From: Chitinivibrionales bacterium
GTDB taxonomy: Bacteria; Fibrobacterota; Chitinivibrionia; Chitinivibrionales; WJKA01
NCBI GenBank assembly: GCA_014728215.1
Contig: WJLZ01000133.1
Location: 13,129-77,128, forward strand
Direction: 5' to 3'
DNA length: 64,000 bases
The notes beneath the pieces were generated by a model that searched no databases, was not told the origin of the DNA, and saw nothing but the letters and a program-made list of their open reading frames with translations. Below are positions 22,116 to 59,668 of the stretch, one piece after another (position 1 is the first letter of the stretch; the number at the start of each line of letters is the position of its first letter). Both the position numbers and the translations under genes were made by a program.

Positions 22116-22142
22116 TCTACAGCCATGCCGCCTCTGACGAGG
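22116..22142 (+). repeat. intergenic repeat family R1, copy 1 (TCTACAGCCATGCCGCCTCTGACGAGG)
   Basis: The 27-mer is identical to 28168-28194 and differs by one base from 28992-29018. Flanks are also related: CGTT on the left, GAGG(C/T)T(G/A)AA.A..GGG on the right. Confidence 0.9.
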
Positions 22143-22551
22143 TTAAAAGATGAGGGATGCCTGTCGGTTCGTTTCCGAACCCTTCCCTCGTGCGCTCGTG
22201 ACCTCGTCCCCCAAATTGCCTCCCCCCCACACAACAATTATATTGATTTAGGCTAAGGCGCAGGAAGGCTCTCCAACCGAGGCTTGGGAGTGTTGGAAAA
22301 TCCGAACGCAAAAAAAAGATTTTCTGCCGGTGAAAACAGACAATTCCGTTGTGTAGGTCTCTTTTAGATAAGCCGCCGGCTTCGGCGGGGGCATCTCCGT
22401 TTTTATCCCGCCGAAAAAGAGTATTTATCACGGCAGACAACTACATATTTCTATCACCCGAACGCACTCCGGCGGGAGAGAATATACAATTTTTTGCCGC
22501 CGGCTTGTTTGCGTGCCGCATGGGCCGAGCCGGGCCTATATGGAGGAGTAT

Positions 22552-25494
22552 ATGGCAAAGAAGCGCAAAGAATCGGACACAAATCAAACATCGAAGAAAA
22601 AGCAGAACCCGGCTTTGCAAAAGGCACCTGAAGGCAGTTCGACACAGCGGGAGTCATTTCCGGTTGTCGGCCTGGGGTCGTCGGCCGGCGGGCTCGAGGC
22701 GCTGCAGATATTTTTCAGTCATATGCCCGTTGACAGCGGCATGGCTTTTGTGGTGGTGACACACCAGCATCCGGGGCATGAGAGTGTTCTTCCGGAGCTG
22801 TTGCGCAGAGAAACCGATATGCCGGCGCATGAGATCACCGACGGCATGAGCATCGAGCCCGATCAGGTCTATGTTCTCGGGCCCGGCAGCCATGTAACTA
22901 TCGATCGAGGGGTGCTCCACTTGATGGAGAGGGGGCATGCCGGAGGGCATGATGCGCCGATCGATATCTTTTTCCGCTCGCTTGCCCATGACATGCATGA
23001 GCGGGCGATTGCTATCGTCCTCTCCGGAACCGGTTCTGACGGTACGTTGGGAATCAAGGAGGTCAAGGCCCAGGGCGGCATGATCGTTGTTCAGGAGCCG
23101 TCCGCTGCAAAATATGGCGGTATGCCGACCAGCGCGCGGGATACGGGTGTTGTGGATTTTATCGAGCCGCCGGAAAAGATGCCGGAATGTATGCAGAATT
23201 ATGCCAATGGCCCGTATCTTCAGCCAAGAACACCGCAAGAAGATGATCGTTTCACCGACAAAGATCTTGAGGCGATTTTACGATTTATCCGCTCACGGAT
23301 CGGTCATGATTTTTCTTCGTATAAGCGCAGCACCATCCACCGGCGTATCGAGCGCCGCATGAGTGTCCACGGCCTGGAAAAAGCACAGGACTACCTCGAT
23401 TTTCTCCATGAAAACCGTCAGGAAACGCAGATGCTGTTTTCTGAATTGTTAATCAGCGTGACCAGCTTTTTCAGGGATCCCGAGGCCTTTAAACTACTGC
23501 AGGAGAAATATCTTACCGAACTGGTCGTATCCCGTCCCGACAACCACGAGTTCCGTGTCTGGGTGCCGGGCTGTGCCACGGGGGAAGAAGTTTACAGCAT
23601 CGCGATCATTCTTTCTGATATCAAGCAGAAGTCCCGGAAACCGATAACGTTCAGTGTTTTCGGCACCGATCTTGATGAAAGGGCCATCCAGCGCGCCCGG
23701 CGGGGGGTATATCCCGAAAGTATTTCGGTTGATGTTTCCCCCGAGCGGCTGGAGCGTTATTTCAGCCGTGAAGGCGAGGACATGTATTCGGTCCGGAAAA
23801 GTATCAGGGACATGCTGGTGTTTGCGCCTCATAACGTGCTCAGCGATCCGCCGTTTCTGAAAATCGATCTGCTGGTGTGCCGCAATCTGTTGATCTATCT
23901 CCAGCAGGACCTCCAAAAGCTGCTTCTGCCGACCTTTCACTATGCATTGGCACCGGGCGGCATTCTGTTTTTAGGCTCTTCCGAGAGTGTCGGGCCCCAT
24001 ACCGATCTTTTCGAATCGCTGGATACCCGCTGGAAAATATACCGCCGCAAGGATGTGCCGACCGAACTGCCGAGACTGCCTGCCCAGCCGGGGAAGCATG
24101 AGGCTGAGGCGCAGGCGGAACGAGAGCAGCCCGGCCCGCCCCGTCAGTTGCAAACAAACCGTCGGATCGAGCGCCTCCTGCTCAGTCGATTTGCCCCGGT
24201 CAGCATTGTGGCCGATCGTAACGGCACTATCGTGTATATCCACGGAAGAACCGGTTTTTATCTTGAGCCCGAAGAGCAGAACCCACAAAACAATATCATC
24301 GAGATGGCCCGTGAAGGGCTGCGTCTTCCCCTCTCCGCCGCCATTCATCATGTCCAGACAAAAGACCAGGAAATTACGCGACGCGCAGTCAGGGTCAAGA
24401 CAAACGGAACCTACCTGAGCGTCGATCTAACCGTCTCTCCCATACAGGAACCCGAATCACTCCGCGGTCTGCTGCTGATTACGCTCACACGAGCCGCTCC
24501 TCCTTCCAAAGCTCCCGAGACGGAAAAGGCCGAAGGTGAAAACGAAGTTCCTCCCGAGCGGGTCGAAGAACTCGAAAAGGAACTGCTCTCGGTCAGAGAA
24601 TCGAATCAGACCATGATTGAAGAGCTCCAGTCGAGCAACGAAGAACTGCAGAGTTCCAACGAAGAGCTGCAATCGACCAACGAAGAGCTTCAGAGCTCCA
24701 AGGAAGAGATGGAGTCGCTCAATGAAGAGCTTACCACGGTAAACAATGAACTTGACAGTAAGGTGGTTGACCTGCGGCAGGCGCACGATGACATGCGTAA
24801 CCTGCTCAACAGCACCGATCTGGGAGTGATATTCCTGGACCAGCAACTGCGGGTGAAACGGTATACCGAGAAGGTGCGGGGCCTGATCAGTTTCAGGGAT
24901 TCCGATATCGGCCGTCCCATCGGCGACCTGTCCGCCCAGTTGAAATACGATAATCTGCTCGAAGACTGCAAAAACGTTCTGAACACCCTGGTGCGGAAGG
25001 AAATTGAGGTCGCTACAAAAGACGGCACCTGGCACCTCATGCGGATTCTCCCCTATCGTACCGCCGAGAATGTTATCGGCGGCGTGGTGATAACATTTGT
25101 TGACATATCGCGTCTGAAGGAAAGCGAAAGTCATGCCGAATCAATGGGGTTTTTTTATGATATTGTCAATACTATCGGAGAACCGCTTATTCTGCTCGAC
25201 AAAAACATGCATGTGCAGTATGTCAACAATGCCTTTATCGGTACTTTTGCAACCAGCTTCGAAAAGGTGCGCGGCAAAAAAATCTACGATCTCGGCAACG
25301 GCCAATGGGATATCCCGCAATTTCACGCCCTGCTGGAAGAAATCCTGCCTAAAAATACGGAGTTCAACGATTTTAAGGTTGAGCATGACTTTCCGGCTAT
25401 CGGTCGCCGGACATTCCTGCTCAATTGCCGCCGCCTCAAACGCGCCGAAGGCGCCGAGGAGTTGATTTTTCTGGCAATGAAAGAGAAGGAGTGA
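22552..25494 (+). CDS. CheB methylesterase / CheR methyltransferase fusion protein with coiled coil and PAS domains
   Basis: The ORF opens at 22513. The ATG at 22552 follows GGAGGAG. Domains in order:
- CheB-like: FPVVGLGSSAGGLEAL, GTGSDG.
- CheR-like SAM methyltransferase: FFRD, VWVPGCATGEEVYS, CRNLLIY.
- Heptad repeat: EELQSSNEELQSSNEELQSTNEELQSSKEE.
- Two or three PAS-like regions.
There is no kinase output domain. Confidence 0.88.
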   Translation: MAKKRKESDTNQTSKKKQNPALQKAPEGSSTQRESFPVVGLGSSAGGLEALQIFFSHMPVDSGMAFVVVTHQHPGHESVLPELLRRETDMPAHEITDGMSIEPDQVYVLGPGSHVTIDRGVLHLMERGHAGGHDAPIDIFFRSLAHDMHERAIAIVLSGTGSDGTLGIKEVKAQGGMIVVQEPSAAKYGGMPTSARDTGVVDFIEPPEKMPECMQNYANGPYLQPRTPQEDDRFTDKDLEAILRFIRSRIGHDFSSYKRSTIHRRIERRMSVHGLEKAQDYLDFLHENRQETQMLFSELLISVTSFFRDPEAFKLLQEKYLTELVVSRPDNHEFRVWVPGCATGEEVYSIAIILSDIKQKSRKPITFSVFGTDLDERAIQRARRGVYPESISVDVSPERLERYFSREGEDMYSVRKSIRDMLVFAPHNVLSDPPFLKIDLLVCRNLLIYLQQDLQKLLLPTFHYALAPGGILFLGSSESVGPHTDLFESLDTRWKIYRRKDVPTELPRLPAQPGKHEAEAQAEREQPGPPRQLQTNRRIERLLLSRFAPVSIVADRNGTIVYIHGRTGFYLEPEEQNPQNNIIEMAREGLRLPLSAAIHHVQTKDQEITRRAVRVKTNGTYLSVDLTVSPIQEPESLRGLLLITLTRAAPPSKAPETEKAEGENEVPPERVEELEKELLSVRESNQTMIEELQSSNEELQSSNEELQSTNEELQSSKEEMESLNEELTTVNNELDSKVVDLRQAHDDMRNLLNSTDLGVIFLDQQLRVKRYTEKVRGLISFRDSDIGRPIGDLSAQLKYDNLLEDCKNVLNTLVRKEIEVATKDGTWHLMRILPYRTAENVIGGVVITFVDISRLKESESHAESMGFFYDIVNTIGEPLILLDKNMHVQYVNNAFIGTFATSFEKVRGKKIYDLGNGQWDIPQFHALLEEILPKNTEFNDFKVEHDFPAIGRRTFLLNCRRLKRAEGAEELIFLAMKEKE

Positions 25495-25636: not shown

Positions 25637-26245
25637 CCGTAGCCCGATCATCAGGGAGGGCAAAATAGCATGAATGCTACCAGCGCGACGCATAAACACT
25701 CATACAATCCGATAGGACCGGTGGCATATTTCATTACATTCCGCTGCTATGGAACATGGCTGCATGGAGATAAGCGAGGCTCAATGGACCGAATATCGCA
25801 TAATAAGCCGGGAATACCTCTTCTGCCGTCTTCGCATGCCAGGCAGCGACAAGAACGCAAGCAGATGAAACATCCGCCTGTGCTATTCACTCCGCAGCAA
25901 CGGCTTGTTGTCGATAGAACAATTCGGAGTGTGGTCGAGTATAATCGATGGTTGCTTCATGCCTTGCGGGTTATGCAGGATCATGTTCATGTCATATTAA
26001 CGGCCGGCAAAAACCCGGAGCTGGTGATGAATAGTCTTAAATCGTGGTGCACAAGGAGACTGCGTGAAGGTGGATTCATCGAAGAAACGACAAAGCCATG
26101 GTCGCGGCATGGAAGCACACGATATCTATGGAACGAAGACGAATTAAAAAAGGCGTGCTTATATGTAAATGAAGGTCATAAAGAAAACAACAGATGATCG
26201 GTATGCTGCGCATAACACAAGCCCTCCTTAACAGTCGGGCTACTG
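25637..26245 (+). mobile_element. REP-RAYT unit: Y1 transposase gene flanked by inverted REP-like 25-mers
   Basis: CCGTAGCCCGATCATCAGGGAGGGC (25637-25661, +) lies upstream. The reverse complement of 26221-26245, CAGTAGCCCGACTGTTAAGGAGGGC, lies downstream. The two are in inverted orientation around the transposase CDS. Confidence 0.6.
25670..26197 (+). CDS. IS200-like Y1 (HUH) transposase, REP-associated tyrosine transposase (RAYT) type
   Basis: 175 aa. Motifs YFITFRCYGTWLHGD, the HUH motif HVHVIL, and C-terminal tyrosines (RYLW...ACLYV). A single gene with no tnpB. By eye its GC is lower than that of its neighbours. Confidence 0.75.
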   Translation: MNATSATHKHSYNPIGPVAYFITFRCYGTWLHGDKRGSMDRISHNKPGIPLLPSSHARQRQERKQMKHPPVLFTPQQRLVVDRTIRSVVEYNRWLLHALRVMQDHVHVILTAGKNPELVMNSLKSWCTRRLREGGFIEETTKPWSRHGSTRYLWNEDELKKACLYVNEGHKENNR

Positions 26246-26340: not shown

Positions 26341-26450
26341 AAAATCCGTAGCCTGCAATGGGAAGAGGACCATAAATTAAAATCCGTAGCCTGCAATGGG
26401 AAGAGGACCATAAATTAAAATCCGTAGCCCGACTGTTAAGGAGGGCCATA
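26341..26450 (+). repeat. tandem array of REP-like units (2 x 38 bp plus one variant)
   Basis: AAAATCCGTAGCCTGCAATGGGAAGAGGACCATAAATT occurs at 26341-26378 and again, identically, at 26379-26416. The third unit, AAAATCCGTAGCCCGACTGTTAAGGAGGGCCATA, is at 26417-26450. Positions 26424-26446 are the perfect reverse complement of 26221-26243. Confidence 0.9.
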
Positions 26451-26489
26451 TTGCCGTTTAAGGAAATCAAAAGCTCCAGGACACCACCA

Positions 26490-28142
26490 ATGAAAGCAAC
26501 CAAAATGTGCAACAGCAACAAAAAAGCAGAATTCCGCAAGCGTGCGGAGGAGCGTTTGCAGAAAACGCGTGATGAGGTAGCATCGATGGCAACCGAAGAT
26601 GTTCAGGAACTTATCTATGAACTTCAGGTGCACCAGATAGAGCTGGAGATGCGCAATGATGAAATCGTGCAGGCGCAGGAAGAGACTACGATGGCCCGCG
26701 ACCGGTATCAGCGGCTGTACGAGTTTGCACCCGAGGGATACATTACGCTGGATGAAGACCTTGTGATTCGGGAAGCCAATGAGGTTGCGGCATCGCTTCT
26801 GGGAGTGAGCCGCCGGCAGCTTGTCGGCGACCGGATCTCGCGGCATGCGGTTTCAGAAGACCGGGATATCTGCTATAAGTATCTTAGAGAAATTTCCACA
26901 ATAAAGCAGCCGCAAAAAGTGGAAATCAGGTTTGAGCCGAAGCCGGAAGACCGGCGAATCGTCCAGCTCCAGGCAAAATTCAGCCGCTGCCCGATAGCCG
27001 GGCAGGTAGAGATACCTGTCGCTTTAACCGATATCACCGAGGAGCACAACGCCAGGGATGCCCTCAGGTATTCGGAACAGCGTTACCGGTTTCTCTATGA
27101 GCAGTCGCAGTTGACAAATGTTGTGCTCGGTCTCGATGGAAAAATTACCGATATCAATGAAGCGGCCCTGCGGAGAATGGGGTATTGCAAGGAAGAGGTT
27201 ATCGGGCAGCCGCTCATCAATTTTATTGTTCCTGCGCAGCGGGAAACTATCACGCAATGGATCGATGAAGTCGCCCATGGCGGACCTGCGGAATCGATCG
27301 ATATCGAAGTGTATGACAAGGATGGCTCGGTACGGACGTTCATGACCGCGGCGGGAAACGTTATGCTCTATGACAATGGAAATCCTTCGGGCATGCTTTT
27401 CAGCGCCAGCGATATTACCGAGCGGAAGCAGCTTGAGGAACAGCTTCAGCAACGCGCCCGGGAATTGGCCGAATCCAACAAGGAGCTCGAAGCCTTTGCG
27501 CATTCAATTTCGCACGACCTGCGCAACCCGCTCAATAACCTGCTCGCCATGTCGGATTTGCTGCTGCACTCCTTTTCCGAGAAACTTGACAAAGACGGTG
27601 TCTGGTGTGTGCACGAAGTGGAGCGGAGCGCACAACGCATGTCGGCAACGATTTCGGATCTGCTCCGTCTCTCCCGGGTAACTCGCCACGAGCCGGTTCC
27701 CGAACAGATCGATCTCAGCGAAATGGCCGGAATTATTGTGGCGGAGCTGCAGAAAGCAAAGCCCCGCCCGAATATACGCGTGACGATCAAAGAAAATATG
27801 ACCGTAGTCGCGGACAGCGGCCTGATGCACAATGTGCTCTACAATCTTTTAGAAAACTCCTGGAAATACACCGGTAACCGGGAGGACCCGTCAATCGAGT
27901 TCGGCAGTTTCGAGCGTGACGACAGAACGATATTTTATGTCCGTGACAACGGAGAAGGCTTTGATATGGACAAGGCCGGCGAGCTGTTCGAGCCGTTTCG
28001 GCGCCTGAGCACCAGCCATAAATATGAAGGCACCGGGATCGGCCTATCCCTTGTCAAGAGGGTTGTCGCCCGTCACCACGGACAGATATGGGCCGAGAGC
28101 GAGAAGGGGAAGGGCGCAACTTTTTATTTCTACCTTGGGTAG
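26490..28142 (+). CDS. PAS domain-containing sensor histidine kinase (cytoplasmic)
   Basis: The ORF opens at a TTG at 26451, and an in-frame ATG lies at 26490. N-terminal coiled coil (YELQVHQIELEMRNDEI), two PAS-like regions, HisKA H-box SHDLRNPLNN, and HATPase_c (NLLENSWKY, DNGEGF, GTGIGLS). No transmembrane segment. Confidence 0.88.
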   Translation: MKATKMCNSNKKAEFRKRAEERLQKTRDEVASMATEDVQELIYELQVHQIELEMRNDEIVQAQEETTMARDRYQRLYEFAPEGYITLDEDLVIREANEVAASLLGVSRRQLVGDRISRHAVSEDRDICYKYLREISTIKQPQKVEIRFEPKPEDRRIVQLQAKFSRCPIAGQVEIPVALTDITEEHNARDALRYSEQRYRFLYEQSQLTNVVLGLDGKITDINEAALRRMGYCKEEVIGQPLINFIVPAQRETITQWIDEVAHGGPAESIDIEVYDKDGSVRTFMTAAGNVMLYDNGNPSGMLFSASDITERKQLEEQLQQRARELAESNKELEAFAHSISHDLRNPLNNLLAMSDLLLHSFSEKLDKDGVWCVHEVERSAQRMSATISDLLRLSRVTRHEPVPEQIDLSEMAGIIVAELQKAKPRPNIRVTIKENMTVVADSGLMHNVLYNLLENSWKYTGNREDPSIEFGSFERDDRTIFYVRDNGEGFDMDKAGELFEPFRRLSTSHKYEGTGIGLSLVKRVVARHHGQIWAESEKGKGATFYFYLG

Positions 28143-28167
28143 CAGGAGGGGGCTTGTCGGTCCGTTG

Positions 28168-28194
28168 TCTACAGCCATGCCGCCTCTGACGAGG
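28168..28194 (+). repeat. intergenic repeat family R1, copy 2
   Basis: Identical 27-mer TCTACAGCCATGCCGCCTCTGACGAGG, 26 nt after the PAS-kinase stop. Confidence 0.9.
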
Positions 28195-28218
28195 CTTGAA
28201 GAAAGGGGGCTGCCCAGG

Positions 28219-28305
28219 TCCGTAGGACCGACATGTCTGTAGCACGATAACGCAGCGGAATGATAATTTCCCGAGGTTCGTAGAACCGGCATGTCTGTAA
28301 CGACC
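28219..28305 (+). repeat. two direct R2 repeats (TCCGTAGGACCGACATGTCTGTAGCACG / TTCGTAGAACCGGCATGTCTGTAACGACC)
   Basis: Copies at 28219-28246 and 28277-28305. Their core CG(A/G)CATGTCTGTA is an approximate reverse complement of the R1 core TACAGCCATGCCG. Their 5' part, CCGTAGGACCGAC, resembles the REP-like CCGTAGCCCGAC. Confidence 0.8.
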
Positions 28306-28312: not shown

Positions 28313-28567
28313 TTAAAAGCTTGTCATCGGAACATCTTTTTTCGAATCAAGATAAAGTGTGTCGGGACAGATGTCCTGTTCATGTGGCCATACAACCGTT
28401 CCGTGTTCGGCATGCGCCTGCTGGAAATAGGTAATATCTTTCAGTTCTCTAAACACGCCAAAATCAAGCAACGGTTTACAATCATAAAGTCCATGCTCTC
28501 CATTGGTGAATAGCAGTTCAAGCATGTAGTCGTCTAGCGGCTTAACATCTTTAATTCTCGGGTTCAT
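28313..28567 (-). CDS. DUF2442 domain-containing protein
   Basis: 84 aa. I recognise MNPRIKDVKPLDDYMLELLFTNGE...FQQAHAEHGTVVWPHEQDICPDTLY as the DUF2442 pattern. Confidence 0.8.
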   Translation of the reverse strand: MNPRIKDVKPLDDYMLELLFTNGEHGLYDCKPLLDFGVFRELKDITYFQQAHAEHGTVVWPHEQDICPDTLYLDSKKDVPMTSF

Positions 28568-28576
28568 AGTTTTATC

Positions 28577-28846
28577 TCACTTCAGAGGATCTATTTTGTA
28601 CGGCTGATCACCTTGCGCGGCAAGCTGCCAATCAGCCATTAATTCATCCTTGTGAAGCTCAATCCAGGCAGAGACCAATTTCATTTTATTCGCTGGAATA
28701 GAGCCCTCAAGGACATTTCCATCGGGAATCCTTATAACAACTTCCTGTTCCTGGTATTGCGCATGAATATGCGGCGCTTTATGTTGCTTGTTGTCAATGA
28801 AATACATATAGATAATAATCCCATAAAACATCGATATTGCGGGCAT
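28577..28846 (-). CDS. DUF4160 domain-containing protein
   Basis: 89 aa. I recognise MPAISMFYGIIIYMYF.D...H..PHIHA.Y as the DUF4160 N-terminal signature. It lies 9 nt upstream of the DUF2442 gene. Confidence 0.8.
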   Translation of the reverse strand: MPAISMFYGIIIYMYFIDNKQHKAPHIHAQYQEQEVVIRIPDGNVLEGSIPANKMKLVSAWIELHKDELMADWQLAAQGDQPYKIDPLK

Positions 28847-28991
28847 CAGGGTTCTTTCGGATAAAAATTAATAAATATGGTCATATATATTTATAAAAGT
28901 AGATTATGCCGTATCAGTTTTCCATACTTCAAGGAGGAACGATGGTTTTTTATTGCCAGGCTTGAAGAGGGTTGTGCGTGTTTGTGCGTTA

Positions 28992-29018
28992 TCTACAGCC
29001 ATGTCGCCTCTGACGAGG
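28992..29018 (+). repeat. intergenic repeat family R1, copy 3
   Basis: TCTACAGCCATGTCGCCTCTGACGAGG, one mismatch to the other copies. It is bracketed by a 14-bp direct repeat AGGCTTGAAGAGGG at 28958-28971 and 29016-29029. Confidence 0.9.
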
Positions 29019-29144
29019 CTTGAAGAGGGGGTGCTTACCGGGTCGGTTGTTTTTCCGGAAAAAATCCGAGAACGAGGAGGATGCTTCGATAAACTCAGCA
29101 CAGCGGGACGAGAACGTTTGTTCTGAGTCCTGAACCTTCGCCTC

Positions 29145-29250: not shown

Positions 29251-30117
29251 TCACCCCTGCTCCCCGAGCGTAAAGAAAAACGTCGCCCCTTTCCCGACTT
29301 CGCTTTCTGCCCATATTTTGCCGCCATGCCGCTGAATAATTCGTCGTACAACGGCCAGGCCCAATCCGGTACCGGGATATTTAGCCTGCGAATGGAGCGT
29401 GTGGAACTGCTCGAATACTTTTTCGGCATGTTCGAGATCGAAACCCGCGCCGTTGTCTTTTACAAAATAGACGGTCTGGTTGTCTTCATGGTACATGCCG
29501 ATTTCGATTCGGGCATTCGGGGTGTTCCTGGTGTATTTCCAGGCGTTTTTGAGGAGATGTTCGAGTGCCTGGCGGGTCAGCTTGCTGTCTGCGGTTGCAG
29601 TCATGTTTTTTGCGATGACTACGTCTACGGTGCGTTCCGGATCTGTCTCTCTCAGTTCTGCGATGAAATCCTCGGCAATCACGCTCAGGTCAATTTTTTT
29701 CAGGCGCAACTCGCGTCGTACTACTTGAGACAGCTCCAGAAGCCCGGAAACCGTATCGGTAATGCGCGAGACATTCGATTTTATCAGGCGCAGGCACTTT
29801 TGACCGTCGGAATCCAGTACATTGCCGTAATGTTCTTCGAGCACACCGGCCATGGCGCCGATGTTGTTGAGCGGGTTGCGAAGCTCATGGGAAATGGATT
29901 GTGAAAAAGCTTCGAGTTCCGCTGCGCGGAGCTCTGCTGCTTTTCGCGCCTTCGCAAGCTGCTGCTCGACTTTACGCAACCGCACGACCGCGACACTCTG
30001 TTCGCCGACAATGGCGTCAACCTCATGCTTGCGCAGTGCCGAAACAAGCTCTTCAGCTTCGGCCAGGCGCTTTTCAAGTTCTTCGTAGGTAGGTTCCCGT
30101 TTGCTGTTAGCCATCAT
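29251..30117 (-). CDS. histidine kinase (coiled-coil N-terminus, HisKA + HATPase_c), third gene of the kai operon
   Basis: The ORF extends to 30165. The ATGs at 30117 and 30114 overlap the kaiB stop (sequence ATGATGGCTAA). H-box SHELRNPLNN. HATPase_c motifs HLLKNAWKY, DNGAGF and GTGLGLA. No PAS domain, transmembrane segment or KaiB-like domain. Confidence 0.85.
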   Translation of the reverse strand: MMANSKREPTYEELEKRLAEAEELVSALRKHEVDAIVGEQSVAVVRLRKVEQQLAKARKAAELRAAELEAFSQSISHELRNPLNNIGAMAGVLEEHYGNVLDSDGQKCLRLIKSNVSRITDTVSGLLELSQVVRRELRLKKIDLSVIAEDFIAELRETDPERTVDVVIAKNMTATADSKLTRQALEHLLKNAWKYTRNTPNARIEIGMYHEDNQTVYFVKDNGAGFDLEHAEKVFEQFHTLHSQAKYPGTGLGLAVVRRIIQRHGGKIWAESEVGKGATFFFTLGEQG

Positions 30118-30430
30118 CACCTTGTTCGATATTAAGTTGTTGCGCGATTGCATCTTTATCATCAAGGCTGCCGAAAAAAGTCATGCGCATTGCCGGGTCA
30201 TCGCAGGTGACAAGAAGGGTCGGCGTCACGACGATACGTTCCTTTAAGGCTGCCTCAAAATCTTTGTATACATCGATTACGTGTATGGTACATTGTTTGG
30301 TCGCTTTTCCCGAGCAAAGGTTATTGAGATTGTTGAGTGCGCGCAGAGAATTGGGCTCATCGCTGGCGACAAAGAGAACAAACCGGTAATGAGCTTTGCC
30401 GCCGGTATGGGTATCGGATGAAGGCATCAT
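30107..30430 (-). CDS. kaiB: circadian clock protein KaiB homolog
   Basis: 107 aa. The thioredoxin-like KaiB pattern is present: YRFVLFVASDEPNSLRALNNLNNLC...IHVIDVYKDFEAALKERIVVTPTLLV. Its start overlaps the kaiC stop (ATGA). Confidence 0.88.
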   Translation of the reverse strand: MMPSSDTHTGGKAHYRFVLFVASDEPNSLRALNNLNNLCSGKATKQCTIHVIDVYKDFEAALKERIVVTPTLLVTCDDPAMRMTFFGSLDDKDAIAQQLNIEQGDDG

Positions 30431-32139
30431 TGGCCTCCTTTCCGGGTGCGGCGGGAGCTGCGATTCTTCTGTAGCACTTTTTCTTCGCTATCTTTGCTTT
30501 TCCGCATAATTTCCCGTTGTTCACGGGCTTTGTCGAAAATGACGTCTTCACTTTTCAGATTTTCAAGCTCGACAATCGCTTTATCGATTCGGGCCTGCAA
30601 AGCCAGCCTTTCGGCTTTAGAGGACGCCTTCATGCGTTCGATTTCCTTCTTTTTGGCCTCAACCTCGTACTGCCGCTGACGTTCTTCCTGCTGCTCACGG
30701 ATCTCCTGCTCCTGACGGGCCACGCCGGTGAGCATGCCGCCTTTGCCGCTATAAATGTCGGCAAATCGTATACCGTCTGAAGTTATCATGAATTCCCGAA
30801 ACTGATTGGTATGCTGAGAACCTCTGGATTTCATGATCAGAATCGTGCGGTTCATTTCCCCGCCGATTGACGAATAGTTAAGATACACAATCGTATCGAT
30901 AATCGATGAATAGCCGATTCCGAAAATTTCGCCGATATTTTCTTTCCCGGTGATCTGGTTGGTAAGCAGAACGGTAATGCCTTTTCGGCGACAATGCGTG
31001 ACAAGCCGAAGCATGAAATAAAAAGCGGTTGCCTCGGAGCCCATTCGATCAAACGAGGAGACCGCATCTACAATTACATACCCTGGGTTATGGTCTTCAA
31101 TGGCATTCATCAGATTATCTAAATGGATTTCAGGAACGACGGCTTCCGGCATTTGCGAGAGGATTTTGAGCGAACCTTTTTGGATTACCGGCTCGAGATC
31201 GATTCCCGAGCTTTTCATCATGCCAACCATGTGCCCGGCCGATTCTTCATAGTTGACATACAACACCCGCTCGCCGTTCTCGCATGCATTGCGCGCAAAG
31301 GTATTGGAAATCGTGGTTTTGCCGGTTCCGGTGGCGCCGACAATAGCGGTGCACCCTCCTTTGGTATACCCGCCGCCCATCATGTGATCGAGTTCCTCAA
31401 AGCCGGTGGAGATATGGCCTGTTATCGGTGGATAGGACATTTCCAGATCTACCAAGGGATGAAAGACCAATCCCCGTTCGCTGATCGCGTAGGGGTTGGC
31501 GCCGCTGCTGAATCCGGAGCCGCGGCATTTGACAATCTGCAGCAGCCGTTGGTGCTCGGTGGTCTCCGCCCTCAGTCTGACAACACAATCGGTTAAAAAC
31601 TCCACAAAGGGGTAATAGGACTGTTCGCCGGCAAGCTTCATGGTGATCAGTGCGGTGAGTTTGTGATCTAAAAGCCAGTCGTGAAGCATAAAAATTTCGT
31701 TGCGTTCCCTCGCGGGGTTTTCAAGCAATTGCAGAAGAACATCGACTGCATCGATAACAATACGTTTTACATTCAGTTTCCGTATAAGGCCTTCAAGCAG
31801 GGCGAAGAGTCCCGCAAAGCTGAATTCCCCTGTGACGACTGCTCTGGGATCGAGCCGGGGATCAAGCACCGCAAGGCGTCCTTCCTTTTCGAGCTTCGCC
31901 AGATCCCATCCCAGAGTAAGCGCGTTACGCCTGAGTGCATCGGCGCGTTCTTCAAAGGAAATCAGTATGCCCGCCTCGCTATTCTGCGCGCCTTCAATCA
32001 GAAAATGCATGCCGATAATGGTTTTTCCGGTGCCGGTTTCGCCGTGGATAAGTGTTGTACGGCCGGAAGGATAACCACCGCGAAGTGCTGCATCCAGGCC
32101 GCCAATTCCAGAAGAGAGTTTTATGAGTTTTTGGGTCAT
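30427..32139 (-). CDS. kaiC: KaiC homolog with extended C-terminal coiled-coil tail
   Basis: 570 aa. Two RecA-like domains with Walker A motifs GETGTGKT and GATGTGKT, and catalytic EE pairs (SFEE, NYEE). The phosphosite-region equivalent is GYSSIIDTIV, against ISTITDTII in S. elongatus as I recall it. A charged heptad-rich tail of roughly 95 aa follows ITSDGI. Confidence 0.9.
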   Translation of the reverse strand: MTQKLIKLSSGIGGLDAALRGGYPSGRTTLIHGETGTGKTIIGMHFLIEGAQNSEAGILISFEERADALRRNALTLGWDLAKLEKEGRLAVLDPRLDPRAVVTGEFSFAGLFALLEGLIRKLNVKRIVIDAVDVLLQLLENPARERNEIFMLHDWLLDHKLTALITMKLAGEQSYYPFVEFLTDCVVRLRAETTEHQRLLQIVKCRGSGFSSGANPYAISERGLVFHPLVDLEMSYPPITGHISTGFEELDHMMGGGYTKGGCTAIVGATGTGKTTISNTFARNACENGERVLYVNYEESAGHMVGMMKSSGIDLEPVIQKGSLKILSQMPEAVVPEIHLDNLMNAIEDHNPGYVIVDAVSSFDRMGSEATAFYFMLRLVTHCRRKGITVLLTNQITGKENIGEIFGIGYSSIIDTIVYLNYSSIGGEMNRTILIMKSRGSQHTNQFREFMITSDGIRFADIYSGKGGMLTGVARQEQEIREQQEERQRQYEVEAKKKEIERMKASSKAERLALQARIDKAIVELENLKSEDVIFDKAREQREIMRKSKDSEEKVLQKNRSSRRTRKGGQ

Positions 32140-32344
32140 AATACCTTTGTTTTTGGAATGGGTGAAACAGGGAAAATATTAAAAAGCAAAATAAGTCCTG
32201 GATACTGATTTTGCTAATTCATAGCTCTGTCGGATAACCCGGATTTGGCTTGGCTTAACCGGTGGTAGCGGCTGATGGTTTTGAGGCCACTTGTATTTAT
32301 AATTTTTGAGAGCTATATTTTTAAAATGCCGTTAGCGCGTGTGA

Positions 32345-34309
32345 ATGGATAAAAGAAGGCATATTCGAAAACGATTATTTCCCACCCAGACATTACTGCG
32401 AGGCGCCATGTCCCCCGCACCTGAACAGTTCGGACGCTACAAAGTGGAGCGGCTTCTTGGTGAAGGCGCTATGGGAAGGGTCTATCTGGCGCAGGATCCG
32501 GTTCTGGGGCGTAATGTTGCGATCAAGGTGATTTCGATAGCGCCACTACTCAAAGGCGCCAATCGGGAAGAGTATCTTTGCCGTTTTTCGGTCGAAGCCA
32601 AAGCATCCGCTCAATTGAGCCATCAATCGATTGTTGCCGTATATGATGCCGGTGATGAGGAGGGGATACCCTGGATTGCCTTTCAGTATGTAGAAGGCCG
32701 GAGTCTCGAGGACCTGCTGAAGGAGGCTGGTTGTCTGCCGGTTGACCGGGCGCTGTCGATTGCCGGTGATATAGCGTCGGCTTTACGCACGGCACACCAC
32801 GACAAGATTATTCACCGCGACATAAAACCGGCCAATATTCTTATCGACAACACCACCGGTATTGCAAAACTTGCCGATTTTGGAGTTGCCAAGGCGCCCT
32901 GGGCTATGTTAACGCAGGAAGGCGCCACCCTCGGCTCGCCGGGATATATGTCGCCGGAGCAGGTTGACGGTGCGGAGCTTGACGAGCGCTCGGATATCTT
33001 TTCGCTCGGCGTGGTGATGTATGAAATGATCGCGGGAAAACACCCCTTTGCCCGGGAAACTGTTGCCGCGACCGTCTATGCAACACTTGGGGGATCATAT
33101 GTCCCTCTTCGAGAGCATGCACCGGATATTCCTGAAGACCTCGAGCAGGGAGTGGCCCGGTGCCTGACACCGGATAAGGAGCAGCGCCTGAAATCCGCTG
33201 ATGAACTTATGAGTCTGCTTCAAAATATCGATTGCACCGGAAAAGATAGGGTTGTAAAGTCTTCCTTGGCCGCAAAAAAAAAGTTTACGCAACAAAGCGA
33301 GCTGCCGAAGATTGTGATTCCGGTATCCGGGATAATGAAGTTTTTCGTTCGAATTGATGAATTGGTGCGCAGAAACCCAACGTTTAACAGGGTGATTGAC
33401 CGTTCGGCAGACCTGTTTGTCCGGCTCAAGCCGCATGCCGCGGTTGCAAAACGGCGATGCGGCAAAGTGTTCATGTCGGGATCCCGCAGGCTCACCCGAT
33501 TTATTGTCGCTCAATATAAAAAAACAGCCAAAGTGCTTGCCCACAACAGGCGGTTGCGCTATGCTTCTGTTGGAGTTTCTGCTGGAGCCGTTGTGGTTTT
33601 CGTCCTGCTGATGCTTTTATCTCCCGGCGAGGAATCGATTTCCGAATCCGGGATTTCAAAACTGCTGTCTTTTCCGGTTCCCGCACTCAGCAGCAACCAT
33701 CGGGATATAATTGACAGTTGTCTCGTTCTGATGAACCGGGGTGATTTCGATGAAGCAGAAGAAAAAGCGGCCGCTCTTATCAAAGAGAAAGGCGCTGCCG
33801 CGGCATACGGGTACCTGCTCCAGGGAAGAATCGAGCTTGAAGATGAGGAGTATTTTGCCGCAAAAGACGCCTTTGAAAAGGCACTGGAACTTCCCCACGG
33901 TAAACGTGTCCTGGACAAAGAACGGCATGCCCTTTTAGAACAGACAAAAAGGCTCCTGACCCGGGAACGAGCACCCGAATCTTTGGCGTCTCTGGCAACG
34001 CATACGCTTGAGCTCGCCGGATACGAAAAAGTGCAGAAGTGGGCGTATGAAAAACCGTACTGGCTTCGGTGGAACACGGTGAGAATTCTCGAGGCTGCGG
34101 GAAAGGATGTTGATATGGTGGAGGTGTACATTCTCGATATGAACCATGGAGGCAGCGCCCGGACGCGTATTCGGGCGGCGCGCAAACTGGGTGAGCTGGG
34201 CGACAAACGGGCAATACCCGCACTCAAGGAAGTCAAGGAAAAGGGCCTGCGGGACCCCTTCGTCGCAAATGTGGCGTCATCGGTACTGGAAAAGTATTTC
34301 GAGGAATAG
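32345..34309 (+). CDS. Hanks-type serine/threonine protein kinase with membrane anchor and TPR/HEAT-like C-terminal region
   Basis: 654 aa, with an alternative ATG at 32408. Kinase motifs GEGAMGRVY, VAIK, HRDIKPANIL, DFG and GSPGYMSPE. A hydrophobic segment (VGVSAGAVVVFVLLMLL). The C-terminal motif RIRAARKLGELGDKRAIPAL is HEAT (PBS-lyase)-like. Confidence 0.85.
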   Translation: MDKRRHIRKRLFPTQTLLRGAMSPAPEQFGRYKVERLLGEGAMGRVYLAQDPVLGRNVAIKVISIAPLLKGANREEYLCRFSVEAKASAQLSHQSIVAVYDAGDEEGIPWIAFQYVEGRSLEDLLKEAGCLPVDRALSIAGDIASALRTAHHDKIIHRDIKPANILIDNTTGIAKLADFGVAKAPWAMLTQEGATLGSPGYMSPEQVDGAELDERSDIFSLGVVMYEMIAGKHPFARETVAATVYATLGGSYVPLREHAPDIPEDLEQGVARCLTPDKEQRLKSADELMSLLQNIDCTGKDRVVKSSLAAKKKFTQQSELPKIVIPVSGIMKFFVRIDELVRRNPTFNRVIDRSADLFVRLKPHAAVAKRRCGKVFMSGSRRLTRFIVAQYKKTAKVLAHNRRLRYASVGVSAGAVVVFVLLMLLSPGEESISESGISKLLSFPVPALSSNHRDIIDSCLVLMNRGDFDEAEEKAAALIKEKGAAAAYGYLLQGRIELEDEEYFAAKDAFEKALELPHGKRVLDKERHALLEQTKRLLTRERAPESLASLATHTLELAGYEKVQKWAYEKPYWLRWNTVRILEAAGKDVDMVEVYILDMNHGGSARTRIRAARKLGELGDKRAIPALKEVKEKGLRDPFVANVASSVLEKYFEE

Positions 34310-55506: not shown

Positions 55507-57468
55507 ATGCTTCGTACTCGTTTATTTAAGTTTTTCGGTTTTCTGGCTTTGATTTTTGGTCTCCTGTATGCCTTTATTGGAGTGCAGGTTATCAGAAAGC
55601 AGGTAATTCAGCGCGCCGAAAATCAGGTGCGGTCGGACTTAAATGCAGCCTGGAGTGTTTTAAATGGCGAAATGAATACTATTGAAACGGTATTGAAGCT
55701 AATTGTCGACAACAGTGGTTTCAGAGAACAGTGCAGCGATGGTCAATTTGATGATGGTGAATTACGACGGCACCTTGAGGGGATACGCACGAGATTTAAT
55801 TTGGATTTTCTAAGTATCCTTACGCCGAATGGAAGGGTTGTACTTAGAAGTGCGCCTCCCTATAAAGTTGGAGATTATTTTCCGGCCGATGCTTTGATAC
55901 AGAAGGCATTAAAGGGGCAAGGCGTTGCCGGGGTTACGCTGTTTGATCCACAGACACTGGATCGGGAGTATGGGGATCTTTCCAGGAGAGCATTTCTGGA
56001 GTTTGAGGAAACACCATTTGCCCGCGGAAGCCGGAAGAATAACGAATCCAGGGGAATGGTTCTTATGAGCGCTGTGCCGGTTGTTTACAATAACAATGTT
56101 GTGGCGGCCGTGTATGGAGGCGTCATGATGAACCGTAACAAGAAAATTGTGGATAAAATTCATGAAACCATTTATCGCAATGAAAAATACAAAGGCACAT
56201 CGACCGGTTCGGTGACCATATTTCTCAATGACTGCAGGATAACGACAACTGTTCGAAAGGATAATGGAAACCGGGCATTGGGAACGCGTGTTTCGAAAGA
56301 GGTGGCTGAAAGCGTTCTTGACAATGGTGAGCCATGGCTCGGCAGGGCGTTTGTTGTAAAGGATTGGTATTTGACTGCCTATGATCCGATATATACGGTC
56401 AACAACAGGATTGTCGGCATGTTGTACGTTGGTATACTGGAACAGCCGTTTGTTGATATTGTCCGCATGATGATTGGCCGTTATGCACTCCTTTCTTTTG
56501 CCGGCCTTCTGGTGACACTTATTGCAGCCTATTTTCTCGCTGCCCGGGTCGCTAAACCAATTCATGCACTGGCCGAGGCGTCGCATACAATGCGTGAAGG
56601 TCAACATCCGGGACGCGTTGAATTTAAAAAATGTTCTACCGAGACTCGTACGCTTATCGATGCTTTTAACAATATGGCAGATAAGCTTGTAGAGAGGGAA
56701 CGCAAACTCAAAGAGGCCAATACATCGCTGGTTGCGGTTAATAAAAGTTACATGGAAACACTCGGCTTTATTTCCCATGAGCTGAAAACACCGTTGGGTT
56801 CCATTATGAATTACACATTTATGCTCGGAGAGGATAAATTCGGAGAGCTTAATGAAAAACAGAAACGGGCGGTAAAAAATATAGACCTTAACACAAAGCG
56901 AATTACCGAAATGGTACGGCATTATCTTAACTTGTCGAGAATAGAAAATAATGAGTTGAATCCTGTGCTCGCCGACGTGCGGATTAATGATGAAATCGTG
57001 GGGTCGCTGATAGAATTGATGAAATTGGCTGCCGAAGAGAAGAGTGTAACAATTCAAAACAATATTCCCGATGAATGTACGGTTCATGCGGACTACAATA
57101 TGACTCATGAAGTATTTGAAAATCTTATCAGCAATGCGATAAAATACGGCAATAAAGACGGATGCGTAACGATCGATTCTCAGATCAGCGATGCAGTGAT
57201 AGAATTCAGGGTTCGTAATACCGGTGATGGTATTCCTGAAGAGTATCGTAATACGATATTTGATAAATTTGTACGTGTCAATGGTATGGGGATGAAGAAA
57301 AAGGGAACCGGACTTGGTCTCTTTATAACACAGCATATAGTTAAGAGCCACGGAGGGACTATCTCTGTTAATTCCGAAGAGGGCAAATGGACTGAATTTG
57401 TTTTTACTTTGCCTGCAAGCAAAGAAAGGTTGAAAAGACATGAACAAAGAACCCTTGAAAATTGTTAA
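55507..57468 (+). CDS. sensor histidine kinase (Cache-like periplasmic domain, HAMP, HisKA, HATPase_c)
   Basis: 653 aa. Two transmembrane segments flank an extracytoplasmic domain of roughly 280 aa, followed by a HAMP-like linker. H-box SHELKTPLGS. HATPase_c motifs ISNAIKYG, RNTGDGI and GTGLGL. Confidence 0.85.
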   Translation: MLRTRLFKFFGFLALIFGLLYAFIGVQVIRKQVIQRAENQVRSDLNAAWSVLNGEMNTIETVLKLIVDNSGFREQCSDGQFDDGELRRHLEGIRTRFNLDFLSILTPNGRVVLRSAPPYKVGDYFPADALIQKALKGQGVAGVTLFDPQTLDREYGDLSRRAFLEFEETPFARGSRKNNESRGMVLMSAVPVVYNNNVVAAVYGGVMMNRNKKIVDKIHETIYRNEKYKGTSTGSVTIFLNDCRITTTVRKDNGNRALGTRVSKEVAESVLDNGEPWLGRAFVVKDWYLTAYDPIYTVNNRIVGMLYVGILEQPFVDIVRMMIGRYALLSFAGLLVTLIAAYFLAARVAKPIHALAEASHTMREGQHPGRVEFKKCSTETRTLIDAFNNMADKLVERERKLKEANTSLVAVNKSYMETLGFISHELKTPLGSIMNYTFMLGEDKFGELNEKQKRAVKNIDLNTKRITEMVRHYLNLSRIENNELNPVLADVRINDEIVGSLIELMKLAAEEKSVTIQNNIPDECTVHADYNMTHEVFENLISNAIKYGNKDGCVTIDSQISDAVIEFRVRNTGDGIPEEYRNTIFDKFVRVNGMGMKKKGTGLGLFITQHIVKSHGGTISVNSEEGKWTEFVFTLPASKERLKRHEQRTLENC

Positions 57469-59668
57469 AAACTTAAGAACCGAAGCTGTCTGGCGGGTGT
57501 TTGAAGCGAAGTTCAATACTGAATACAGGATAACCGTTGGTTCGGCAACCTGCGAAAATGCTGCCGGAGCCCGGGAGGTTTACGGTAAATTTCGGGAACT
57601 GGTACAGAATAACCCGGAAGCAAATGTAACAATGGGTCAGGTGGGGTGTACCGGAAGATGCGATATGGAACCTGTCGTTACTGTTATACGAAAAGGAATC
57701 GTGCCGGTAAAATATGTTCATTGTACTCCTCAAATGGCAGAGGAAATCTTTAAGGACCATATACTCGCTGACAAACCGATAGTAAAGTATACGATGCAGC
57801 ATGTTGATGGATTCAGTTCGACGCGCCGAATCATTGGCCTTTGCACGGGGAAGGCATGCGGTAATGAACGTGCCGACACACTGTTCACCTACTGCGCGGC
57901 TCGTATTGAAGCGGCGAATTTGAGTGAAGAATTAATGGTAACCAGGATGGATTGTCGTGGTAAATGCGACGCCGGACCGGTTATGCATGTTTATCCTGAT
58001 AATGTAATATACAGTGGCTTGACCAAAGAGATGATTGATCGTATTGTGGAAGAGCACTTGAAAAATGAAAAAATTGTGGCCGACTATGCAATGTCGATGG
58101 ATAAGATTTCGAATCGGTTTATACCCTTTTTCGGAAACATTCACTTTTTCGGAAAGCAGCTTCGAATGACTCTTCGGAATTGCGGTGTTATTGATCCTGA
58201 GGCGATTGATGAATATCTGTCGGTAAACGGATATGAAGCCGCGGCGCAGGCTCTGGCATCCGAAGATCCGGAAATGATCATAGAAAAGGTTAAATCGGCT
58301 GGTCTGAAGGGTCGTGGCGGCGGCGGGTTTTTAACCGCCCAGAAGTGGTCCTTTGCCGCAAAGCAGGATGCGGATGAAAAGTTTCTGATATGTAATGCCG
58401 ATGAAGGGGATCCCGGGGCCTTTATGGATCGAAGCACAATAGAAGGCGATCCTCACACGATTATTGAGGGGATGATAATTGCCGGGTATGCAATTGGAGC
58501 GACAAAAGGGTTTATTTACACCAGGGTTGAATATCCCCTGGCGATCAAACGACTTGAAATGGCGATTAAGAGTGCCCGAGAGTATGGTTTTCTGGGTAAA
58601 AACATTTTCGGCACCGGATGGGATTTTGATGTTGAAGTCCGTCTCGGTGCGGGAGCATTCGTGTGCGGGGAAGAGACGGCGCTTATAAAGTCGATTGAAG
58701 GATATCGTGGAGAACCCAAGCCGCGGCCGCCTTTCCCCACCGATAGAGGATTGTGGAATAAGCCGACGGTGATAAATAATGTTGAGACATTTGCCAATGT
58801 TCCAGTTGCACTTCTGGATGGTGAGAGCTGGTTTAATTCGATTGGGACGCCGCAAAGTAAGGGAACAAAGGTTTTTGCCCTGGCCGGTGCGGTCCGGCAT
58901 ACCGGGCTTATCGAGGTGCCGATGGGCACAACGCTTCATGAAGTAATCTACACGGTTGGTGGCGGAATACCGGAAAACAAAAAATTCAAAGCGGTTCAGA
59001 TCGGCGGTCCGGCAGGTGGGTGTCTTCCTGAATCCTTTCTCGAAACACCGGTCGATTACGATTCACTCAAACAGGCCGGGGCAATGATGGGCAGCGGGGG
59101 GATGATCGTTATGGATGAGAGCACCTGCATGGTGGATGTCGCCCGGTTTTTTCTCGAGTTTATGGCTGAAGAGTCGTGCGGACAGTGTACCCCCTGTCGA
59201 GCCGGGACTACTATCATGCTGGAAATTCTGGATTCGATTACAAAAGGAAAGGCCACTATGAGCGATCTTGATAAGCTTGAAGAGATCGCAAAGGTGACGG
59301 CAAACGCTTCGCTCTGTGGACTGGGTAAAGGTGCGCCTAATCCTGTACTCAGCACACTCAGCCATTTTCGCCATGAGTACGAAGAACACATCGTTAATAA
59401 GAGGTGCTCGGCAGGAGTATGTAAAAGCTTAACTTCCTATATCATCGATAGGGAGAAATGTGTCGGATGTACCGCCTGTGCCCGTGTCTGTCCTGTGAAG
59501 TGTATTGTCGGAGCGAAAAAGATGCCCCATGAGATAATCAATGAAATCTGCGTAAAATGCGGTAGTTGTTATGATATATGCAAATTCAATGCTGTACAAA
59601 AGGATGTTGGGCCTTTTGAAAAGGAGAATAAGACATGGAGAACTGTAAAACAAAAAATGACAGCGTAA
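57440..59668 (+). CDS. NuoF-like NAD(P)H-oxidising flavoprotein (HydB/HndC-type) with N-terminal thioredoxin-like domains and C-terminal 2x[4Fe-4S] ferredoxin domain
   Basis: 742 aa. Core motifs GLKGRGGGGF, NADEGDPGAF and ESCGQCTPCR. C-terminal ferredoxin motifs CVGCTACARVCP and CVKCGSCYDIC. Of the two N-terminal Trx-like modules, only the second keeps CxxxxC...CxxxC. The gene overlaps the kinase gene by 29 nt. Confidence 0.88.
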   Translation: MNKEPLKIVKNLRTEAVWRVFEAKFNTEYRITVGSATCENAAGAREVYGKFRELVQNNPEANVTMGQVGCTGRCDMEPVVTVIRKGIVPVKYVHCTPQMAEEIFKDHILADKPIVKYTMQHVDGFSSTRRIIGLCTGKACGNERADTLFTYCAARIEAANLSEELMVTRMDCRGKCDAGPVMHVYPDNVIYSGLTKEMIDRIVEEHLKNEKIVADYAMSMDKISNRFIPFFGNIHFFGKQLRMTLRNCGVIDPEAIDEYLSVNGYEAAAQALASEDPEMIIEKVKSAGLKGRGGGGFLTAQKWSFAAKQDADEKFLICNADEGDPGAFMDRSTIEGDPHTIIEGMIIAGYAIGATKGFIYTRVEYPLAIKRLEMAIKSAREYGFLGKNIFGTGWDFDVEVRLGAGAFVCGEETALIKSIEGYRGEPKPRPPFPTDRGLWNKPTVINNVETFANVPVALLDGESWFNSIGTPQSKGTKVFALAGAVRHTGLIEVPMGTTLHEVIYTVGGGIPENKKFKAVQIGGPAGGCLPESFLETPVDYDSLKQAGAMMGSGGMIVMDESTCMVDVARFFLEFMAEESCGQCTPCRAGTTIMLEILDSITKGKATMSDLDKLEEIAKVTANASLCGLGKGAPNPVLSTLSHFRHEYEEHIVNKRCSAGVCKSLTSYIIDREKCVGCTACARVCPVKCIVGAKKMPHEIINEICVKCGSCYDICKFNAVQKDVGPFEKENKTWRTVKQKMTA

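Follow-up and report, generated by a model that had tools for sequence, protein, structure and literature searches.

A KaiC2-type kaiC-kaiB-histidine kinase operon in a Chitinivibrionales bacterium, and a candidate Kai-docking module at the N-terminus of its kinase

Introduction

What kind of Kai system is encoded where kaiC and kaiB are followed by a histidine kinase gene and no kaiA is in sight, and by which part of the protein would such a kinase be joined to KaiC and KaiB? The question is raised by the minus strand of a 64-kb stretch of contig WJLZ01000133.1 from a Chitinivibrionales bacterium (Fibrobacterota); this whole stretch is the window, and positions are counted from its first nucleotide. 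An earlier note on this DNA had described three coupled genes and proposed a KaiA-independent timer or ATPase switch with the kinase as its output. The three open reading frames (ORFs) stand on the minus strand at the positions and in the order that it gave, and the two gene overlaps that it reported, ATGA and ATGATGGCTAA, were found again: kaiC (30427..32139, 570 aa), kaiB (30107..30430, 107 aa) and the gene of a cytoplasmic histidine kinase of the HisKA type (29251..30117, 288 aa).

We consider it probable that the locus is a kaiC-kaiB-histidine kinase operon of the KaiC2/KaiB2 type, acting as a KaiA-independent phospho-switch with a module-docked output kinase, a function that we infer by homology only. 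The module, a stretch of about 55 residues at the very N-terminus of the kinase, may be the sole element of the locus that is new; the rest is already known.

KaiC is of the KaiC2 type

The kaiC gene was identified as encoding a double RecA-like ATPase of the KaiC2 type by its ORF and by Pfam, NCBIfam and PDB matches. The protein matches the Pfam family PF06745 (E 8e-95) in two stretches, which correspond to tandem RecA-like domains. Both Walker A loops (GETGTGKT at residues 33-40 and GATGTGKT at 268-275) and both EE pairs (63-64 and 298-299) are in place, as had been claimed from the letters, and in an alignment of 33 homologues E63, E64, E298 and E299 are invariant. The sequence YSSIIDT at 410-416 contains the Ser pair S411/S412 (codons 30904..30909, minus strand), the presumed autophosphorylation sites. 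Their counterparts in the alignment are S413/S414 in the Rhodobacter (Cereibacter) sphaeroides protein, KaiC-RS (GLSSLMDG vs GYSSIIDT), and S431/T432 in the cyanobacterial type (ISTITDT), so that the Ser-Ser pair reported at the position of the Synechococcus elongatus phosphosites is borne out by the alignment. Across the same 33 homologues S412 does not vary and the conservation of S411 is at least 90%, and a Ser-Ser pair is present in almost all of 80 related genome loci that we fetched via the KaiC alignment (81 loci when that of the window is counted).

With 455.2 bits, KaiC passes the cut-off of the NCBIfam KaiC equivalog NF006799 (408), and it stays far below those of RadA (TIGR00416, 68.8 bits vs 403) and RecA (37 vs 325). 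A grouping with the RadA/Sms non-clock paralogs, which the earlier note had named as a refuting outcome, was thus not observed. The protein also fails the cyanobacterial-type, or KaiC1, model TIGR02655 (286.4 bits vs a cut-off of 546.25), and its sites are Ser-Ser and not Ser-Thr. Among solved structures, R. sphaeroides KaiC (8DBA) is closest in sequence (E 2e-87); the alignment covers residues 7-538 and so runs through the tail. When the KaiC model was searched with Foldseek, 8FWJ, 8FWI and 8DBA came out at the top with 530-564 aligned columns and template modelling (TM) scores of 0.78-0.86, whereas the cyanobacterial KaiCs were aligned over about 470 columns only. An identical protein, encoded on a 141-kb contig, is already in NCBI under the name 'MAG: circadian clock protein KaiC [Chitinivibrionales bacterium]', where MAG stands for metagenome-assembled genome.

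The KaiC2 subgroup has been characterized by two serines at the phosphosite and by a C-terminus about 50 aa longer than that of other KaiC clades (PMC10076222; PMC5520375). KaiC of the window has both, namely S411/S412 and a chain of 570 aa, compared with 519 aa for the S. elongatus chains, with an extension that is predicted to be helical. In a neighbour-joining (NJ) tree, which is crude, without support values, and anchored by KaiC-RS and a cyanobacterial-type designed KaiC alone, the related KaiCs form one clade with KaiC-RS, and a long branch leads to the cyanobacterial-type KaiC; the protein studied here groups with those of Chitinivibrionales, Desulfobulbaceae and Spirochaetales. Of the placement among the KaiC1, KaiC2 and KaiC3 clades that had been suggested, this tree gives a part: it puts KaiC with KaiC-RS and apart from the cyanobacterial type.

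The C-terminal tail of KaiC aligns with the hexamer-joining arm of KaiC-RS

In R. sphaeroides, the extension of KaiC forms a 12-helix coiled coil between two hexamers, and with it the protein can cycle without KaiA, driven by the ATP/ADP ratio (PMC10076222; PMC5520375; PMC11372060). In KaiC of the window about 97 aa follow A474, in agreement with the length of roughly 95 aa given earlier. Residues 472-552 (30484..30726, minus strand) are predicted by AlphaFold2 to form a single helix of 81 residues, the presumed coiled-coil arm, which is also covered by the Foldseek and HMMER alignments. The model is that of a single chain, run on the 33 homologues with a mean predicted local distance difference test (pLDDT) of 85; along the helix, means over blocks of 10 residues were 76-90 for 471-540 and 56 for 541-550. 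The chain ends with a basic and variable stretch, residues 553-570 (30430..30483, minus strand), which is predicted to be disordered: pLDDT is below 50 for 548-570, and this end is variable and gapped in the 33-homologue alignment.

The alignment of the tail to KaiC-RS given by HMMER is gap-free, and that of Foldseek to the chains of the KaiC-RS dodecamer reaches 564 columns. Among 94 long homologues (555-600 aa), 93 have no indels over 468-553. Across the 33 homologues, the junction G467-G468-x-L-T471-G472-x-A474-R475 shows little or no variation, with G467, T471, G472, A474 and R475 invariant; further on, L525 hardly varies, and conservation is also seen at R542 and R546 in the distal tail. 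The hydrophobic positions of the family, I511, L514, L518, L525 and L528, match I, L, L, L and L of KaiC-RS. As judged from sequence and model, the tail is a structured helix homologous to the arm that joins the KaiC-RS hexamers.

A long tail is present in the KaiCs of about 45 of the related loci. Tail-less KaiCs with the Ser-Ser pair (loci L036-L079) are nested among the tailed ones in the NJ tree; those of Acidobacteriota and Nitrospirota end 3 residues after the core and those of Planctomycetota about 21, a distribution which suggests that the tail was lost at least twice. At the other extreme, KaiC of Candidatus Halobeggiatoa sp. HSG11 (locus L020) has about 484 residues after CII, in a stop-to-stop ORF of 958 aa, compared with about 100 residues in typical tails; it may be a fusion or have a much longer arm.

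KaiB and the layout of the operon

KaiB was identified by its ORF and by Pfam and PDB matches. It matches PF07689 over residues 19-98 (40.2 bits vs a cut-off of 27, E 3e-10), and its PDB matches go down to E 2e-9, including KaiB-RS (8FWJ_M) at 9.5e-9. With R. sphaeroides KaiB it shares 32% identity, and it has about 13 extra N-terminal residues. By its scores against the NCBIfam equivalogs, given below, KaiB is a divergent member of the family and not of the cyanobacterial KaiB1 type.

The TGA of kaiC and the ATG of kaiB overlap as ATGA (30430-30427), within the sequence ...GGAGGCCAATGATGCC... when the reverse complement is read. The TAA of kaiB (30109-30107) lies inside ATGATGGCTAA, where the kinase starts at 30117; at this junction (...GGTGATGATGGCTAACAGC..., reverse complement) it stands within the ATGATG start of the kinase, which gives a protein of 288 aa. 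Sequences resembling Shine-Dalgarno sites precede the start of kaiB (AAGGAGG) and that of the kinase (AAGGTG), and no terminator-like site was found on the minus strand inside the three genes. Longer forms of the kinase can be read: from a TTG start its ORF spans 29251-30165 (304 aa), with alternative starts at 30162 or 30165, and NCBI annotates a protein of 303 aa, 'hypothetical protein GF401_10900', which starts at 30162, 45 nt upstream of ATGATG. We favour the shorter, translationally coupled ATGATG start over that at 30162, because homologues begin 3-10 residues ahead of the PTYEEL motif described below, although the start remains ambiguous.

The operon in related genomes

The 80 related loci come from Desulfobacterota, Acidobacteriota, Planctomycetota, Nitrospirota, Chloroflexota, Gammaproteobacteria, Spirochaetota, Myxococcota and other phyla. 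With the window counted, kaiB is directly downstream of kaiC in 77 of the 79 loci with room for it, and in 71 of these 77 a kinase gene comes next, within 1 kb and on the same strand. A kaiC-kaiB-PAS/histidine kinase operon has been described in Rhodopseudomonas palustris and R. sphaeroides (PMC4794148); this architecture is common and already described. KaiC and KaiB of the window are of the KaiC2/KaiB2 type and belong to a widespread, already annotated class of kaiC-kaiB-histidine kinase operons.

Receiver genes are found beside several of these operons. In one close relative (L133) a receiver-kinase gene stands directly after the short Kai-linked kinase, and in another relative (L002) the Kai-linked kinase is itself a hybrid. 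Many relatives (L055, L067, L070, L077, L035, L017, L018 and others) have, immediately ahead of kaiC and in the same orientation, a gene for a CheY-like receiver, mostly of about 150-190 aa. This arrangement is clearest for the tail-less KaiCs of Acidobacteriota; other relatives have a divergent receiver gene, and the window has neither.

The histidine kinase begins with a module conserved in kaiB-adjacent kinases

The kinase was assigned from its ORF, its Pfam matches and its start, which overlaps the kaiB stop. In the numbering of the 304-aa ORF, Pfam finds HisKA at 85-147 (E 7e-12) and HATPase_c at 193-301 (E 1.6e-24), and it detects no sensor domain, PAS included. In the kinase alignment H77, N191, D221-G225 (DNGAGF) and G249-G253 (GTGLGL) are invariant; His77 (codon 29887..29889, minus strand), the invariant H of the SHELRNPLN H-box, is the presumed phospho-acceptor, and the N, G1 and G2 boxes of the ATPase domain are present as well. 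Homologues of this catalytic core are very numerous, with more than 5,500 matches. The AlphaFold2 model (pLDDT 87) has the DHp helices and an alpha/beta CA domain, and a helix that runs from residue 11 to 97 and continues into DHp. NF006800 (PRK09303) is matched by the catalytic part only (118 bits vs a cut-off of 342), and there is no KaiB-like N-terminal domain of the SasA type, since kaiB itself is the sole match when the window is searched by phmmer with KaiB as query. The N-terminus of the kinase is without Pfam match and predicted to be helical.

This N-terminus contains a conserved module of about 55 aa, residues 7-62 (REPTYEELEKRLAEAEELVSALRKHEVDAIVGEQSVAVVRLRKVEQQL; 29932..30099, minus strand), with the pattern PTYEEL-x12-ALRxxEVDA[IV]VGE-x3-[VI]A-x2-RL-x-E-x-E. 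With a hidden Markov model (HMM) built from six copies, we observed the module in 69 of the 71 kinases that directly follow kaiB, at the very N-terminus of proteins of 190 to 1,868 aa with or without PAS domains or receivers. The same HMM matched 2 of the 26 other kinase ORFs of the same loci. The reverse was also found: of 51 metagenome loci retrieved with no query other than the motif, all 43 with enough sequence had kaiB immediately upstream; kaiC was upstream in 26 of 26, and the ORF with the motif was a kinase in 37 of 37. A protein search with a broader module alignment returned only 18 short fragments, without gene context. Among the 120 nearest homologues of the catalytic core, the HMM matches seven, five of them clearly at the N-terminus. 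Two module-bearing core homologues that we examined both stand directly after kaiB, and three without the module have no kai gene nearby.

The module reaches R. sphaeroides. Similarity between its HWE kinase and the kinase of the window is confined to the module (ELRRRLHEAEETLKAIRQGDVDALVV, 14 of 26 residues identical), and the match covers the first 26-30 residues of the HWE kinase. The tail-less KaiCs keep the kaiB-kinase pair with the same module, and the module is therefore independent of the KaiC tail. A pairing of the kinase helix with the KaiC tail was considered and rejected, the kinases beside tail-less KaiCs having the same module.

These linkages make the module a candidate Kai-docking element. 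For a wider claim we see about equal grounds for and against: that it is a previously undescribed docking element through which the KaiA-less KaiC-KaiB systems of at least 10 phyla, including R. sphaeroides, drive their output kinases. It would then do the work that the KaiB-like domain does in SasA, at the head of kinases of the HisKA, HWE, PAS-containing and hybrid types. We found no description of the module in the searchable literature, which is an incomplete library; in the structural study of KaiC-RS the words 'histidine kinase' occur 0 times and the kinase of the operon is not mentioned (PMC10076222). Short, sharply conserved and specific to the kinases encoded beside kaiB, the module offers a way into the output side of KaiA-less KaiBC systems, and it is approachable both in R. 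sphaeroides and in the minimal 288-aa kinase described here.

Another kinase of the window, PAS-PAS-HisKA-HATPase at 26451-28142 (plus strand), is paralogous to the Kai-linked one (phmmer E 7e-67) and is without the N-terminal module. Within its gene, 81 nt (27482-27562) are 77% complementary to 29840-29920 in the gene of the Kai-linked kinase.

Proposed mechanism and alternative explanations

By homology with KaiC-RS, the KaiC hexamers would stack tail-to-tail as a dodecamer in which the A-loop region is held extended, and KaiC would therefore autophosphorylate S411/S412 without KaiA. KaiB would bind the post-hydrolysis CI ring and speed ATP hydrolysis and dephosphorylation at falling ATP/ADP, so that the system would be an hourglass or energy-state switch and not a free-running clock. 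The gene linkage suggests that the kinase would dock on the KaiB-KaiC complex via residues 7-62 or so, that the continuous helix into DHp would relay the state of KaiC to autophosphorylation of His77, and that the phosphoryl group would pass to a receiver encoded elsewhere in the genome. No receiver gene lies at 22-34 kb, as had been stated; the only receivers of the window are two single-domain proteins (60153-60545 and 60899-61381), about 30 kb from the kai operon. The structural premises of the proposed KaiA-independent timer or ATPase switch all hold, and the closest solved relative, by sequence and by fold, is the KaiA-independent KaiC-RS.

Several observations speak against this phospho-switch, or against parts of it. 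KaiB, which passes its Pfam family, is below the cut-offs of the NCBIfam equivalogs NF006798 and TIGR02654 (40.2 bits vs 110 and 145), a sign of divergence. A scan of 49 ORFs of the window gave no KaiA domain, which speaks for the switch and agrees with the earlier claim that a kaiA-like gene is lacking, yet this absence covers these 64 kb only. In the model of the kinase, pLDDT is below 50 at residues 32-34, in the conserved VDAIVGE stretch, and the fold of the module is thus uncertain. The motif-based metagenome scan used narrow patterns and recovered mostly close relatives. The host is probably a non-phototrophic anaerobe, in which a day/night role is not obvious. Finally, the tail of KaiC is only 26% identical to that of KaiC-RS; in this sequence by itself the hydrophobic periodicity is not significant, and the heptad signal of the family profile is weak (variance by position modulo 7: R2 0.23, p about 0.04).

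This last point bears on an alternative which we consider unlikely, namely that the tail does not stack hexamers as a coiled coil but serves as an arm that binds another partner, such as the helical kinase N-terminus, or is simply flexible and charged. It draws on the weak heptad signal, on residues 476-500, which are almost purely charged, and on the model being that of a monomer. The earlier note had called the tail charged and heptad-rich, and of this description the length stands and the heptad richness was not shown by hydrophobic periodicity tests: best-register a/d scoring, Fourier power near 3.5 residues and modulo-7 variance all gave weak signals or none. Likewise, the structure check that it had asked of the tail yielded a helix (472-552, AlphaFold2 monomer) and not disorder, with no clear heptad register. 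However, the same periodicity test also fails on the solved coil of KaiC-RS itself (p 0.67), and such tests therefore neither support nor refute a coiled coil. Moreover, the tail aligns to that solved coil without gaps and with I511, L514, L518, L525 and L528 coinciding with its I, L, L, L and L, and the tail-less Ser-Ser KaiCs of Planctomycetota, Acidobacteriota and Nitrospirota keep the kaiB-kinase pair with its module, which argues against an arm for the kinase. Could the kinase instead be an input, a sensor of a signal such as redox state by which KaiC or KaiB is modified? Such a part has been suggested for the PAS kinase in R. sphaeroides. The literature allows that the operon kinase passes a redox signal to KaiBC (PMC5520375; PMC10931921), and many kaiB-adjacent kinases of the other loci bear PAS domains or receivers. 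The kinase studied here, however, consists of the N-terminal module, helix, DHp and CA only, without PAS or other sensor, and the element conserved across kaiB-adjacent kinases is the module and not a sensor. To our knowledge there is no His-kinase substrate site on KaiC or KaiB, which also counts against an input role, and we regard this role as improbable. The lack of a sensor together with a module tied to kaiB favours the kinase as the output, as the earlier note had proposed. A self-sustained circadian oscillator like cyanobacterial KaiABC is by far the least probable of the alternatives, although all three core activities are found in KaiC and KaiB is present: there is no KaiA in the window, KaiC fails TIGR02655 (286 bits vs 546), and its closest characterised relative depends on an external ATP/ADP cue (PMC10076222).

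Comparison with known Kai systems

The preferred reading, a KaiA-independent phospho-switch, finds its nearest parallel in the hourglass of R. sphaeroides (Cereibacter) KD131 (8DBA, 8FWI, 8FWJ), encoded on plasmid pRSKD131A as kaiC-kaiB-HWE kinase, that is, in the same gene order. In both systems KaiC has 570 aa, Ser-Ser phosphosites and a helical C-terminus, the two termini aligning without gaps; kaiB is directly downstream, the first 30 or so residues of the next kinase match the module, and no kaiA is adjacent. The sequences are nevertheless distant: KaiC is just 33% identical (26% over the tail) and KaiB 32%, with the additional N-terminal residues mentioned above. The kinases also differ, a 288-aa HisKA protein without PAS here and a 478-aa PAS-containing HWE protein (WP_012643402.1) in R. 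sphaeroides, as do the hosts, a MAG of Chitinivibrionales (Fibrobacterota) and a purple phototroph.

With KaiABC and SasA of S. elongatus the locus shares the double-domain fold of KaiC, its Walker A loops, its EE pairs and the position of its phosphosites, as well as a thioredoxin-like KaiB partner; there the state of the clock is read by the histidine kinase SasA, a role that is here proposed for the operon kinase. Unlike in S. elongatus, there is no KaiA (within the 64 kb), the sites are Ser-Ser and not Ser-Thr, a long C-terminal helix takes the place of the short A-loop tail, kaiC precedes kaiB rather than following it, and KaiC is below the TIGR02655 cut-off. Unlike SasA, the kinase has no KaiB-like N-terminal domain and has a different module of about 55 aa instead.

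KaiC-KaiB-PAS/histidine kinase of R. palustris and KaiBC of Legionella pneumophila fall into the same KaiC2 subgroup by their stated hallmarks, not by sequence comparison (PMC4794148; PMC5520375). R. palustris has the same operon layout (PMC4794148), whereas the kinases of these two species, unlike that of the window, carry a PAS domain. The roles reported for these systems, adaptive growth in light/dark cycles and stress resistance, need not hold for an anaerobic heterotroph. With this locus the known KaiC2-type systems gain a member in a Fibrobacterota-related anaerobe, in keeping with the view that such timers or energy switches are not bound to phototrophy.

Surroundings of the operon

Upstream of kaiC, an intergenic region without ORF (32140..32344, no strand assigned) extends over 205 nt to a divergent gene and is the presumed promoter region of the operon; a promoter scan of it gave two weak sigma-70-like matches on the minus strand, a count not above that of shuffles. 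The product of the divergent gene (32345-34309, plus strand) is a Ser/Thr protein kinase (Pkinase, E 1e-47) whose C-terminal part has a HEAT_PBS repeat. Farther away on the plus strand, 55507-61381 contains a Cache-HAMP histidine kinase gene and NuoF-like and NuoE-like genes, followed by the two single-domain response regulators mentioned above. On the other side of the operon, a CheB-CheR fusion of 993 aa (22513-25494, plus strand) has two C-terminal PAS domains and NEELQS-type repeats at about 690-730, and is without receiver domain or adjacent chemoreceptor.

Between the PAS kinase gene and the 3' end of the kai operon lies a DUF2442/DUF4160 gene pair (28313-28846, minus strand), flanked by 72-nt direct repeats (28152-28223 and 28976-29047) that are 82% identical; it looks like an inserted cassette. 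In the close relative L133 the exact place of this pair is occupied by the receiver-kinase gene. An intergenic repeat with the core TCTACAGCCATG(C/T)CGCCTCTGACGAGG occurs at 22116-22142, 28168-28194 and 28992-29018, always on the plus strand and nowhere else in the 64 kb, where no copy is expected by chance. Its three copies mark borders between modules: asmA and cheBR, the PAS kinase and the DUF2442-DUF4160 pair, and this pair and the 3' end of the kai operon. Since the repeat contains CTGACGAG, which recalls a hammerhead core, a hammerhead ribozyme was considered for it and dropped, there being no Rfam match up to E 1 and only weak folding z-scores.

An ORF for an IS200/RAYT-like Y1 transposase (Pfam Y1_Tnp, E 2e-5) is at 25670-26197 on the plus strand. 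Just downstream of it and directly upstream of the PAS kinase gene, a 38-nt unit is repeated three times in tandem (26341-26454), two of the units being identical, and this tandem repeat may be related to the intergenic repeats.

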